Below are positions 5,720 to 8,703 of a DNA stretch of 43,394 nucleotides, piece after piece. The stretch comes from a virus. Made by a program: the position numbers and the translations under genes. The notes under the pieces were generated by a model. It was not told where the DNA came from. It worked only from the letters and a program-made list of their open reading frames with translations, and searched no databases. How positions within the stretch are numbered: the first letter of the stretch is position 1; the number at the start of each line of letters is the position of its first letter. The DNA is taken from IMG/VR virus record IMGVR_UViG_3300015263_000944, positions 1 to 43,394 of that record; one strand, 5' to 3'.

Positions 5720-6910
5720 CTAGAAGCATCCCGCACATTGTTCACAGTCTTGGAACTCGAACTGATCGATGATGGGCAGCGAAGGCATTCCATCAATCAA
5801 CCCATTCGTTTGTATGAAATCGGCCATGCGCCCAGAACGATGCTTTGTGCGATGTCCCCACAATCCCTCAATCACTTGCAGTTGTTCTTGGCAGTTGTCT
5901 TCCATGCGAACAATGGCTCGCAGATAGTCACGACCATGTTCGGTTTGGGAATACAACTCCAACTCTTCTGCGGTGGTGGATGGACAGAACCAGCAAGCTG
6001 ATTTGACCGGCACCCCACCTTTCTTGATCCACTTGCGGCCAGTGTGATCGGACCAGCCGGGCAGACCTTCCTTCCGAATCTCTTCAAGGCATCGTTGACG
6101 ATCCCAGCCGAGTTCGATCAAAGGATACCAGTATTGGTACAACTGATCGTCGGTGATCTTGAATGAACGCCGTGAGTCATTCGGGCTTGCATCATAACCA
6201 ATCGCCACGATGCCTTGGTAGTGCTTGTCCCAGCACGTCTGGAATTCGTCAAGGCTCTCCCGGTATTTGTTCTGAGGCCCGATCTTCCACTTGGCACTGC
6301 ACTTTTTGCGTTTGAATGCCCATGAGGGGAGCGTGCGGTTGACGAGGCACTGTTGCTCCAGTGTGTGATACCAACCATTCTTCACTCGATCAGGAGAGGG
6401 CTTGTATCGCACAGTCACAACAGGCGGGAAACCCATCTGCTTGAGGTAGTCTTGAATGACTGGCTCGTAAGCATAGGTCTCTTTCTTCTCCGAGCCGGTG
6501 TCGGCGAAGGTGATGCAGGTCGGGCGGAACTGCGGACGCTTGTTCTTCTGTGAGTTGTAGAGCCGTGCCAGATGAATGAGCAGAGCGGTGCTGTCCACGC
6601 CCATCCCATAGCACACGGAGAAGGGACGGCCCATGCGGATGCGTTCCCACATGTTGTCGAAGGTGACAACCGGTGCAGGCTTGCACTCGGTCTCCATCTC
6701 CATGCTGAGTATGAGGCCACGAACTTCGGTGGCATTACCCAGCTTCATTTTCTTGGCCCAGTCAGATCGAGCTACATCCGCACACAGTTTGTTGAATGCG
6801 GCGAAGGGATCGGCGGCGATCTCTTCATCCATCTTCCATTCGATGTCGCTGATGACCCGCTGGAAGCGGGTGCGGTTGGGTTGTGCTTTCTCTTTGGTTT
6901 TGGTCGGCAT
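5720..6910 (-). CDS. PAPS reductase / DndC-like PP-loop ATP pyrophosphatase family protein with C-terminal Cys cluster
   Basis: Track ORF, ATG start with SD GGAGAA. PP-loop-like YGMGVDSTALLIHL (variant of SGGxDS) and C-terminal CWFCP...CEQCAGCF; TAG stop. Confidence 0.55.
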   Translation of the reverse strand: MPTKTKEKAQPNRTRFQRVISDIEWKMDEEIAADPFAAFNKLCADVARSDWAKKMKLGNATEVRGLILSMEMETECKPAPVVTFDNMWERIRMGRPFSVCYGMGVDSTALLIHLARLYNSQKNKRPQFRPTCITFADTGSEKKETYAYEPVIQDYLKQMGFPPVVTVRYKPSPDRVKNGWYHTLEQQCLVNRTLPSWAFKRKKCSAKWKIGPQNKYRESLDEFQTCWDKHYQGIVAIGYDASPNDSRRSFKITDDQLYQYWYPLIELGWDRQRCLEEIRKEGLPGWSDHTGRKWIKKGGVPVKSACWFCPSTTAEELELYSQTEHGRDYLRAIVRMEDNCQEQLQVIEGLWGHRTKHRSGRMADFIQTNGLIDGMPSLPIIDQFEFQDCEQCAGCF

Positions 6911-6941
6911 GTGGTTCTCCAGTTTTCCTGATGACGAACCA

Positions 6942-6953
6942 CAAGCGGGTGTT
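6942..6953 (-). promoter_or_regulatory. conserved intergenic motif copy sitting in the loop of inverted repeat tgacga(6932-6937)/tcgtca(6956-6961)
   Basis: Read directly; lies between TGA stop 6959 and ATG 6910. Confidence 0.45.
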
Positions 6954-6958
6954 GCTCG

Positions 6959-7177
6959 TCACACGTCGATGAATAACGGATAACTCGTCAGCAGGCCCAT
7001 TGCTTCGTCATACACCGGGCCGCTGTTCTTCAATCCCAGATTCTTTCGCAACCAGTTCATGTCGTGTCGCAGGATCTTGGGAAAGTTGAGTAGCTCCAAG
7101 AGTGATTGAAGCCTGATCCTCGCCGCCCTCTGTTCTGGTGTCGGCTGAGGCATGAGGTAAGCGAAACATTCTGGCAT
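6959..7177 (-). CDS. hypothetical small protein (72 aa)
   Basis: Track ORF 6959..7225; the 7225 start lies inside the motif, so I use ATG 7177 (MPECFAYL) with SD GGAGAA. Confidence 0.4.
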   Translation of the reverse strand: MPECFAYLMPQPTPEQRAARIRLQSLLELLNFPKILRHDMNWLRKNLGLKNSGPVYDEAMGLLTSYPLFIDV

Positions 7178-7202
7178 GGTGATTCTCCTCTCTGTTGATC
7201 CA

Positions 7203-7215
7203 CAAGCGGGTGTTA
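7203..7215 (-). promoter_or_regulatory. conserved intergenic motif copy (TTTAACACCCGCTTGT) immediately after terminator hairpin 7222-7251
   Basis: Read directly. Confidence 0.5.
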
Positions 7216-7221
7216 AACGCA

Positions 7222-7251
7222 ACAAGCCGCCTCATTGCTGAGGCGGCTTGT
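7222..7251 (-). terminator. 13-bp perfect stem-loop (acaagccgcctca-ttgc-tgaggcggcttgt) 30 nt downstream of ParB-like gene stop
   Basis: Perfect complementarity read in sequence; followed on minus strand by TGCGTTTAACA. Confidence 0.55.
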
Positions 7252-7281
7252 GATGCGATTGGGGTTCTGACCGGAAGCGGA

Positions 7282-8703
7282 CTACGCAGCCTTGGTCTTG
7301 GTCTTGCGATTGCGGTTCTTCTTGCTCTGCTGTTCCTGCTTCGCAAGGTCGATGCGATCCGCATCCTCGATCCGCTTGTCGCTTTCCTTGATGGCCTGAG
7401 CCAGCGGCAATCCCATGCAGTCGGCGATGGCCTGACGACGCACCTTGTTGTCTTCCGCCGTGGCGTCGAACAACTTCTGCATTTCGCTCAGCGGCAGACC
7501 ACGGTTGCGATTCGTGGCGGGCTTGCCCGTCTCCGAATAGTGGCGTTCGCCGAGTGCCCGACGTGAGGCAGCCGTGACCGTCATTTCGCCGAGGGCGACC
7601 TTGCGACGATCCGAGTCGGTGAGACCCTTGGCGGGCTTGAGCACCTTCCCCTTCTCGTCGGTCTTCGCTTCAACTCGGGGACGCCACAGGGCTTCCCGGT
7701 TGCGGAAGGTCGAGTATTCGACGCCGATCCGGGCGGCGGCTTCCTTCATCGTGAACTTCTCGCCGGTTTCCGGGTTGGTCCGCTGGCACATCTCATGGTA
7801 GAAGCGGCCTTCCTGCAACGGCGTGAACTGCTTGCGGCTCAGGTTGATGACACCGCTCATCACGAACAGGTCGTCCTTGCTGCACTTCAGGTCGGTCGCC
7901 TTGATCGTCGCCGGGAATTCGGACGACGGGGCGTCTTCGGCCTTGTCGTGCCGCTGCACACGGCTCTTGGCGTGCAGATACAGGATGGCGGCGGAACGTC
8001 GGCCACCTTCGACCATGACGTACTTGGAGCCGCTCTTCTGGACTTGCACGGGATTCAACTGCTCGAAGGTCTTGATGTCTTCGGACAGTTCGACGATGGA
8101 CTGCGGGGCGGACGGGTGAGGAACGACCTTGCAGTTCTTCGCATCGCTGTGCGACGACTTCTTCTCCTTGCAGAAGTGCTCGGTGCCGGTGAAGACGGTG
8201 GTTTCCCGCTTCGTGTCCGGGTCGGTGTGAACCAGACGGCAGATCGGGCCTTCGTACTGCTCGATCAACTCGACGTACTGACGCACGTTGTCGATGTCCT
8301 CGTCGAGTGCGAGGTGGACGAGCGAAACGAACTCCTTGTCCGTCGCCTCTTCCACACGGGGGTCGCCGAACAGGATGTAGCCCTGCTGGTACAGAGCTTC
8401 CGGCTCGACACGGGGGTTGTCGTACTCCTTGATCGCCGAGAGCGGGATCACGAAGACGGAGCCGACATCCTGCGCCTCACCGGTCTTGAGAGCGGCGGCG
8501 TTGGCCTGATTCAGCGTCAAAATCTTGGGGCTGGCGGAAGCGTTGGGCCGGTTCGGACGCTTGGGAGCGTTCTTCTTGGCCTTCGACTTCGGCTTGCTCT
8601 TGCTGTTCGGCTTCGGCGCAACAGCGGTGGCGGCGGGGGAATCCGATTCCGTTTGGGCGGCAACATCCGTGGCCTGATCAGCAGTAGCGGTGCTCGTGGA
8701 CAT
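7282..8703 (-). CDS. ParB-like nuclease-domain (ParB/Sulfiredoxin fold) protein with low-complexity basic N-terminus
   Basis: Track ORF, ATG with SD GAGGAGG. ParB N-domain motifs VFVIPLSAIKEYDNPR and YVMVEGGRRSAAI (GxRR). Confidence 0.6.
   Translation of the reverse strand: MSTSTATADQATDVAAQTESDSPAATAVAPKPNSKSKPKSKAKKNAPKRPNRPNASASPKILTLNQANAAALKTGEAQDVGSVFVIPLSAIKEYDNPRVEPEALYQQGYILFGDPRVEEATDKEFVSLVHLALDEDIDNVRQYVELIEQYEGPICRLVHTDPDTKRETTVFTGTEHFCKEKKSSHSDAKNCKVVPHPSAPQSIVELSEDIKTFEQLNPVQVQKSGSKYVMVEGGRRSAAILYLHAKSRVQRHDKAEDAPSSEFPATIKATDLKCSKDDLFVMSGVINLSRKQFTPLQEGRFYHEMCQRTNPETGEKFTMKEAAARIGVEYSTFRNREALWRPRVEAKTDEKGKVLKPAKGLTDSDRRKVALGEMTVTAASRRALGERHYSETGKPATNRNRGLPLSEMQKLFDATAEDNKVRRQAIADCMGLPLAQAIKESDKRIEDADRIDLAKQEQQSKKNRNRKTKTKAA

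Follow-up and report, generated by a model that had tools for sequence, protein, structure and literature searches.

Two neighbouring phage genes: a core ParB-type protein and an optional PAPS-reductase-fold enzyme

The IMG/VR virus record IMGVR_UViG_3300015263_000944, analysed here over 43,394 nucleotides (the window), encodes a ParB-type protein and, one small open reading frame (ORF) further downstream, a PP-loop protein of the phosphoadenosine phosphosulfate (PAPS) reductase fold, called PAPS-like below. The three ORFs are as follows.

7282..8703, minus strand: ParB-type protein, 473 aa, recognised by motifs and profiles; a core gene of the phage lineage
6959..7225, minus strand: small ORF without family match, 88 aa from TTG
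5720..6910, minus strand: PAPS-reductase-fold PP-loop protein, predicted to bind Fe-S, 396 aa, recognised by phrog_424, motifs and hhalign

A first-pass annotation, made from the sequence alone, had joined the two larger genes into one DNA-modification or anti-restriction module; its ORFs are all present as described, on the minus strand. Across related loci, the ParB-type protein and the PP-loop enzyme are neighbours and are not supported as a unit. On balance, we favour the view that an uncultivated jumbo phage carries in its early or replication region two independent genes that happen to adjoin, a core ParB and an optional PAPS-like enzyme that would work by the mechanism proposed below. 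We read the latter as a stand-alone ATP-pyrophosphatase/Fe-S enzyme modifying nucleic acid for counter-defence. The interest of the locus rests on this uncharacterised PAPS-like clade and not on its pairing with ParB.

Co-occurrence of the two genes and nature of the ParB-type protein

A tblastn search of 50,697 GenBank phage records reveals no homologue of the ParB-type protein, and in IMG/VR a single locus is found, on a 234.6-kb viral genome. The stretch with these genes recurs identically on a 17.3-kb Joint Genome Institute (JGI) metagenome contig, and a contig of 238.9 kb has a PAPS-like protein identical to that of the window. Contigs of the lineage (L093-L096) measure 128-275 kb, and some ParB matches lie on contigs of about 690 kb. 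The window apparently stems from an uncultivated jumbo-phage lineage, in whose early or replication region ParB, a sigma factor, a RuvB-like AAA+ ATPase and ArdC are conserved genes.

The conserved gene neighbourhood implied by a ParB/PP-loop pair is not found. In the close relatives L002-L004 (51-58% identity) the PAPS-like gene stands immediately after ParB; as these loci are syntenic over 20 kb, the adjacency says little by itself. All four long contigs (L093-L096) retain the synteny and have no PAPS-like ORF within 8-10 kb of ParB. Of the metagenomic ParB loci, 11 extend 2 kb or more downstream, and one of them (L113) has the gene there, so that 14 of the 15 loci found through ParB are without it. 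Its distribution is patchy when set against ParB similarity: the gene is absent from L095, whose ParB is 57% identical to that of the window, yet present in L002-L004, whose ParBs are only 42-48% identical.

The view from the other gene is the same. Pfam ParB_N occurs in 2 of 139 ORFs near the PAPS-like genes of 32 further lineages, and a ParB profile built from the phage lineage gives one marginal match among PAPS-like neighbours, an ordinary ParB of the plasmid or integrative and conjugative element type. A hidden ParB was also considered beside the distant homologues in L005, L007 and L008; PHROG, Pfam and the lineage ParB hidden Markov model detected none. ParB is followed by a GC-rich hairpin with a T-run, and the slot after it holds the PAPS-like gene, an AAA_5 gene, UvdE or nothing. 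The PAPS-like gene is thus an optional cassette, a cargo of the variable slot after parB, and we drop the tempting notion of a ParB/PP-loop system as unsupported.

The ParB-type protein itself starts with a disordered, Lys/Pro-rich segment (about residues 1-60), followed by a ParB/Srx N-domain, a KorB/Spo0J-like helix-turn-helix (HTH), a C-terminal helix and a Lys-rich tail. The N-domain, of the ParB α/β fold, contains in order Box I (YDNPRVEP, YDNPRxEP in the family alignment), an inserted subdomain, the GGRR of Box II (GGRRSAA) and the NLSR of Box III. In an alignment of 35 sequences, G233, R235 and R236 of Box II and N287 and R290 of Box III are invariant; where the canonical Box III, ENLQR, has its glutamate, an I, L or V stands instead.

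The matches to known families are weak, yet they agree with one another. The protein matches phrog_3264 (1.4e-6) and TIGR00180 (2.6e-7, at 30.6 bits under the cutoff of 58.45), and aligns with M. xanthus ParB structures over both N-domain and HTH (E 0.004). It has no Pfam match at E≤0.01, PF02195 included; this family is carried by at least 13 of 64 homologues (39-77% identity in the whole set, 40-51% for the carriers). Comparison with known proteins gives scores of 10.5 for PadC, 10.0 for Sulfiredoxin, 9.6 for KorB, 8.7 for Spo0J and 8.5 for the KorB DNA-binding domain. The first-pass annotation had seen here a ParB-like nuclease domain of the ParB/Srx fold with a GxRR motif: family and motif stand, but the description is too narrow, since the protein is a full ParB of the Spo0J/KorB type with its HTH.

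By analogy with KorB, Spo0J and PadC, it is most likely a CTP-dependent DNA-binding clamp, organising, segregating or transcriptionally regulating the phage genome. With the ParB-CTPase clamps (Spo0J/ParB, KorB, PadC, Noc) it has in common the fold, GxRR, the N and R of Box III and the HTH; unlike them, it contains a large insertion between Box I and Box II and the replaced Box III glutamate. Because a hydrophobic residue takes the place of this glutamate, the sequence suggests nucleoside triphosphate binding with slow hydrolysis. We flag the protein as an orphan ParB-type protein, core to its lineage.

The PAPS-like protein and its family

The PAPS-like protein comprises an N-terminal helical domain (residues 4-86), a catalytic core (about residues 92-370) and a flexible Cys-rich tail. 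Along the core run the motifs YGMGVDST, FADTGSEKKETY, C188, C204-S-x-K-W-K, IGYDA and KSAC306WFC309P, the DTG motif having the form FADTGxExxETY; the C-terminus reads QDCEQCAGCF, with the tail cysteines C388, C391 and C394 (CxxCxGCF). The protein, though highly divergent, has the adenine-nucleotide α-hydrolase fold, with a predicted local distance difference test (pLDDT) value of 93 for its AlphaFold2 model.

Its assignment to the PAPS-reductase family, already made in the first-pass annotation, is confirmed by phrog_424 'PAPS reductase' (1.6e-23) and by an hhalign probability of 95.7% over 216 columns against a PAPS_reduct family that has the canonical SGGKDS loop and comes from mobile elements of the same kinds; it does not belong to an unrelated family. 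This alignment pairs GMGVDS with SGGKDS, C204 with a conserved Cys and C306xxC309 with a CxxC. The reported PP-loop is therefore in register, but it is a variant, GMGVDS against SGGxDS, with the first Ser and the second Gly replaced; G102, G104, D106 and S107 are kept in 242-255 of 265 PAPS-like members.

When the family is aligned to E. coli CysH by hhalign, the DTG motif alone is covered, at 42% probability, FADTGSEKKETY pairing with LTDTGYLFPETY. Neither the single sequence nor a 39-sequence profile has a match in Pfam, NCBIfam, PADLOC or the PDB sequences. Sub-threshold PF01507 matches are found in 26 of 39 relatives, and two relatives pass the Pfam cutoff (P0291, 32.7 bits; P0257, 26.2 bits). 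As the link runs through such intermediates and the window protein itself stays below Pfam, membership in PAPS_reduct holds only at the superfamily or clade level.

Across the 265 members, conservation is highest at K209 (265), C204, C309 and E141 (264 each), C306 (263) and T145 (260), followed by C188 (238) and C274 (237). The C-terminal Cys cluster pointed out in the first-pass annotation is real; it is also facultative, as it occurs in 70 of these 265 relatives (~26%). To judge from the alignment, the truly conserved cysteines are internal, namely C204, C306 and C309, with C188 and C274 less strict. The C204/C306/C309 triad is compatible with a predicted three-Cys [4Fe-4S] cluster. These ligands may correspond to those of APS reductase, by a resemblance of motifs and not by alignment.

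The helical domain (residues 4-86) is confined to the ParB-adjacent subfamily of PAPS-like proteins. A homologous domain forms the N-terminus of a zinc-ribbon family, P0330 (hhalign 99.0%, E 2.4e-18), whose members of 245-290 aa are otherwise unrelated to the PAPS-like enzyme and in some cases carry PF10571. In most relatives (L094-L107, e.g. L101:10779-11645) the P0330 gene lies between the AAA+ gene and ArdC; no such protein was found in the 43-kb window. Judging by sequence, the enzyme core has been grafted onto a lineage-specific module, presumably one for docking or DNA binding, and the N-terminal domain probably docks the enzyme to a phage-specific partner or to DNA.

The wider family is a known but uncharacterised kind, large and borne on mobile elements. 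Clustering at 50% identity yields 5,599 clusters at E≤1e-3, against 774 when the threshold is 1e-30. In species-representative genomes we count 437 loci, in Verrucomicrobiota, Acidobacteriota, Bacteroidota, Planctomycetota, Sphingomonadales and others; the carriers are prophages and conjugative elements. By tblastn, the gene is present in 20 GenBank phage records at 32-37% identity. The genes that recur beside it encode SSB, a second, canonical PAPS_reduct, RadC, Mom, ArdC, DUF932 and DNA methylases, the latter adjoining the gene in phage KB12-38 and in L008: a set that phages and conjugative elements typically have in their early or leading regions and in anti-restriction islands.

A conserved partner was sought by BLAST clustering of the neighbours in 36 lineages, and none emerged; the commonest are the second canonical PAPS_reduct (9 lineages) and SSB (7). 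In these 9 of 36 lineages (loci L012, L015, L022, L046, L060-L062, L072, L078, L085, L090 and L092) the second protein, with SGGKDS, is encoded no more than 4 kb from the PAPS-like gene. Its adjacency mirrors a two-domain arrangement within the protein P0198, which hints that divergent and canonical PP-loop enzymes may work together.

LAGLIDADG inteins split at least five PAPS-like members, several of them stand-alone proteins, and three members are fused to PF18823, the inorganic pyrophosphatase (InPase) domain of polyvalent proteins. The fusions are listed here; other members noted in this connection are P0186, P0235, P0226, P0262 and P0284.

P0301, 612 aa: InPase and PAPS-like
P0203, 1,718 aa: giant polyvalent protein with InPase and PAPS-like
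P0198, 2,459 aa: giant polyvalent protein with InPase, PAPS-like, canonical PAPS_reduct and a helix-hairpin-helix (HhH) motif

A survey of polyvalent proteins from 2017 described the InPase domain and no PP-loop domain, and InPase-bearing polyvalent proteins have been proposed to be packaged in the virion and injected (PMC5512222). The fusions to InPase are the best indirect argument that the PAPS-like domain would release pyrophosphate (PPi) by adenylating its substrate.

Proposed function and alternative explanations

In the mechanism that we propose, the modified PP-loop would bind ATP and adenylate an oxygen on a nucleic-acid substrate with release of PPi, which would explain the recurrent fusion to an inorganic pyrophosphatase. 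A [4Fe-4S] cluster on Cys204, Cys306 and Cys309, and optionally Cys188, in some members joined by the C-terminal Cys tail, would deliver sulfur or another nucleophile, and the modified phage DNA (or RNA) would escape the restriction-type defences of the host. In the slot after parB, the PAPS-like cassette carries its own copy of a promoter-like intergenic motif. DNA modification or anti-restriction is still the most plausible role for the PAPS-like gene and for ArdC, as the first-pass annotation had it, though not as a joint ParB/PP-loop module. Should the substrate indeed be DNA, the family would represent a new and widespread counter-defence chemistry.

Several known systems can be compared. 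The phage genes of phrog_424 that GenBank names phosphoadenosine phosphosulfate reductase (Planktothrix phage PaV-LD ORF020R, Pseudoalteromonas phage KB12-38) have the same core motifs and, like the window gene, are surrounded by genes of early, accessory or DNA-metabolism function, in many cases with a DNA methylase next door; the window protein differs by its lineage-specific N-terminal domain and by remaining under the thresholds of Pfam, NCBIfam and PADLOC. With DndC, SspD and BrxP it has in common the PAPS-reductase-superfamily fold, the conserved Cys triad and a conflict-system context, and with DndC also a ParB-superfamily neighbour, DndB in that case; the [4Fe-4S] cluster of DndC is held by three Cys (PMC10853773). 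The DndC affinity suggested in the first-pass annotation finds no echo beyond this: the PADLOC Dnd, Ssp and BREX models, among them those of DndC, SspD and BrxP, give no match at E≤0.1; DndA/D/E, SspA/B/C or BREX partners do not appear among the PHROG matches of the window or its Pfam matches (25 of 26 matched families listed, here and below), nor among the top 25 of 69 families near the PAPS-like genes of 32 other lineages. The window protein further differs in its GMGVDS loop and in being phage cargo instead of a host defence gene.

The only experimental link of such a gene to defence escape is a region of Vibrio phage 44E38.1, where the transfer of p0018, a PAPS domain fused to Dam, together with p0019 gave escape from Dnd (bioRxiv 10.1101/2021.05.05.442762). 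Like the window gene, p0018 brings a phage PAPS-reductase-like domain into a variable anti-defence locus. The effect, however, belongs to a two-gene region and not to the PAPS domain alone; that domain is recognised by Pfam and fused to Dam, whereas the window protein has no methylase fusion, and phage 44E38.1 is not among the GenBank phage records matched by the PAPS-like protein in tblastn. For these reasons the kinship is at the superfamily level only. Aca-regulated anti-defence operons, too, include PAPS reductases (PMC13551039).

Against the independence of the two genes stands the possibility that they form a two-component DNA-modification system resembling DndB/DndC or IbrB/IbrA, in which ParB, once loaded on the phage DNA, would recruit the enzyme or regulate it, possibly through the N-terminal domain of the latter. 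At all five loci of the N-terminally extended subfamily (window, L002-L004 and L113) the PAPS-like gene follows ParB directly or after one small gene, a constancy that could reflect function beyond shared ancestry; the N-terminal domain, specific to this subfamily, could be a ParB-docking module; and ParB_N lies near PAPS-like genes in two other lineages. In ParB-only genomes, moreover, a PAPS-like gene could reside beyond the 7-10 kb flanks examined. There are precedents for such a pair: IbrB/IbrA, a ParB-like and a PAPS-reductase-like protein, IbrA consisting of PAPS_reduct and DUF3440, although NCBIfam and Pfam give no match pointing to IbrA or IbrB for either window protein; and DndB, of the ParB superfamily, which is encoded with DndC (PMC10853773). 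What speaks against a pair is the absence of the gene from nearly all loci found through ParB, its patchy distribution and the near absence of ParB neighbours in the wider PAPS-like family. Besides, a terminator-like hairpin and separate copies of the intergenic motif divide the genes, the N-terminal domain also occurs on an unrelated zinc-ribbon protein far from ParB, and the window ParB is of the Spo0J/KorB type with an HTH. We consider this two-component system unlikely, and retain it mainly because the N-terminal module is lineage-specific. Quite unlikely, to our mind, is a bolder proposal, in which the PAPS-like clade would perform a new, single-enzyme, post-replicative modification of nucleic acid conferring on phages and conjugative elements broad escape from restriction, while in this jumbo-phage lineage a phage-specific N-terminal adaptor would dock the enzyme to the genome, possibly via the ParB clamp; such a modification would be, for example, an Fe-S-dependent thiolation of a DNA base or a Dnd-independent sulfuration of the backbone, with ATP adenylation and PPi removal.

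Phage genes called 'PAPS reductase' or 'cysH' are among the auxiliary metabolic genes most often reported from viromes. As an auxiliary gene of sulfur metabolism, the window protein would be a CysH-like (P)APS reductase or a CysD-like enzyme, perhaps linked to a putative sulfotransferase about 29 kb away. This is most improbable. NCBIfam models of CysH and CysD give no match, and beyond one motif there is no detectable sequence likeness to solved CysH proteins (PDB 2goy, 7lhr, 1sur), even with the family profile. The C-terminal ECGLH of CysH is absent, the tail being QDCEQCAGCF, and a Cys tail is missing altogether in ~74% of relatives. No CysN, CysC or sulfite reductase is found among the Pfam families of the window. 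Unlike assimilatory CysH, the PAPS-like family is restricted to mobile elements, where it occurs in early regions of prophages and conjugative elements near SSB, ArdC and methylases, and in InPase-bearing polyvalent proteins. The window offers a clean case against the metabolic reading of phage PAPS-reductase genes, since the CysH, CysD and DndC models fail while a PP-loop-like site and the Cys triad are retained, and since the family, numbering over 5,000 clusters, sits in early or anti-restriction regions of mobile elements, with inteins and pyrophosphatase fusions. Very improbable, too, is an RNA-modifying PP-loop enzyme of the TtuA/NcsA/TtcA/TilS type acting on phage tRNA or in a takeover of translation, given a DTG...ETY motif and profile links that favour the PAPS_reduct branch over the TtuA and TilS branches, and the DNA-centred neighbours (SSB, methylases, ArdC, Mom); most carrier mobile elements have no tRNAs, as far as an unsystematic survey can tell.

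Returning to two independent genes and a stand-alone enzyme, some points weigh against this picture. The ATP pyrophosphatase activity is not assured, because the PP-loop is non-canonical. No cysteine desulfurase or other sulfur donor appears among the Pfam families of the window. As to the ParB-type protein, in contrast with the ParB-CTPase clamps no ParA partner is seen among the same Pfam families, and no repeated parS-like palindrome was found, palindromes not being enriched in the 43 kb; these searches covered 43 kb of a genome of probably ~240 kb. One candidate parS, a 16-bp palindrome at 16007, was rejected as the centre of a longer perfect hairpin beside a tRNA.

Gene order, intergenic motif and other genes of the window

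All genes spanning ~0.8-11 kb of the window are on the minus strand. In the order of transcription they encode an AAA_5 ATPase, ParB, the small ORF, the PAPS-like protein, a 69-aa ORF, a sigma factor, a RuvB-like AAA+ ATPase and ArdC. Those not yet listed are:

8896..10161, minus strand: AAA_5 ATPase, 421 aa (Pfam)
5472..5681, minus strand: 69-aa ORF downstream of the PAPS-like gene, without family match
4481..5380, minus strand: phage sigma-70-family factor, 299 aa; kept in relatives
3176..4468, minus strand: RuvB-like or clamp-loader-like AAA+ ATPase; kept in relatives
1972..3093, minus strand: ArdC-type anti-restriction protein (ArdcN and MPTase-PolyVal); kept in relatives

ArdC and the RuvB-like ATPase had both been recognised in the first-pass annotation; the latter probably starts at 4420, as given there. 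The small ORF before the PAPS-like gene more likely consists of 72 aa from the ATG at 7177, behind a GGAG-type ribosome-binding site. Its slot varies in relatives, which have a 117-aa ORF, a 156-aa ORF or nothing; at the place of the 69-aa ORF, L002 has a DUF4314 protein and L003 an unrelated 80-aa ORF. The AAA_5 gene also moves: upstream of ParB in the window, it comes after the PAPS-like gene in L003, and in L093 it is the next gene after ParB. In the relatives L093 and L094, genes for CsrA and an AcrVA2-like protein stand beside ArdC.

A 13-nt motif, TAACACCCGCTTG (consensus (C/T)AACACCCGCTTG), is repeated 10 times in the window, always on the minus strand, against 0.8 copies expected; none of 100 shuffles reached 10.

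8833-8845, minus strand: copy of ParB
7203-7215, minus strand: copy of the small ORF
6942..6954, minus strand: copy ~30 nt upstream of the PAPS-like start codon
5693-5705, 5427-5439, 4471-4483 and 3113-3125, minus strand: further copies
10209-10221, 28332-28344 and 816-828, minus strand: further copies

The motif lies 11-90 nt upstream of the start codons of most minus-strand genes in the block from ArdC to AAA_5, often directly behind a GC-rich hairpin with a T-run. Five of six related phages have their own repeated intergenic motif (AAGACACCCGCTTGA, TTAGCGGACACCCT, ACGGACACCCAGTA, AACTGACACCGGCAT and CTAACGGATACTG), with a common ACACC-like core, GACACC in four of the five; none is obvious in L093. 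The region 1-11.2 kb shows no enrichment of consensus sigma-70 promoters or intrinsic terminators, and Rfam detects no riboswitch or other RNA near the genes, its one match being a tRNA. The motif resembles a promoter or RNA-processing signal peculiar to the lineage and evolving in step with some phage factor, which might be the sigma factor at 4481-5380.

The single tRNA, at 15921-15992 on the minus strand, has the anticodon CTA, which reads amber, and is called tRNA-Pyl by ARAGORN. It adjoins a perfect 36-bp palindrome, TTTAGTTGCGACTTTCAA/TTGAAAGTCGCAACTAAA, at 15997-16032. By eye, further tRNA-like T-arm sequences are present at ~16040-16210, uncalled by ARAGORN and Rfam. Genes of RNA and nucleotide metabolism are numerous in the window, with at least two RNA ligases, a NUDIX protein, a nucleoside 2-deoxyribosyltransferase-like protein and HD_4, an HD domain of the RelA/SpoT type; the corresponding ORFs, placed by eye, are 1-737, 18819-19454, 29427-30140, 34053-35228 and 35305-35907.

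Pfam also finds in the window a PARP catalytic domain (1.4e-19) and a WGR domain. Their likely, still tentative carrier is a 554-aa ORF on the minus strand (26630-28294), whose C-terminus matches a PHROG 'polymerase' family; its product would then be a phage PARP-like ADP-ribosyltransferase.

Finally, a cluster at ~36000-43100 contains three radical-SAM/SPASM proteins (36738-37970; 39483-40508, plus strand; 40498-41559) and a NodU/CmcH-type carbamoyltransferase (37861-39459). A probable sulfotransferase ORF of the same cluster (36011-36745, plus strand) was located by eye from its RSG motif, the Pfam match being unplaced. A probable C39-type peptidase ORF (32360-33085), also placed by eye, lies ~3 kb from the radical-SAM cluster. 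Together, the radical-SAM cluster and the peptidase resemble a cluster for the tailoring of peptides, like those of ribosomally synthesized and post-translationally modified peptides, or of glycans, carried by a phage.

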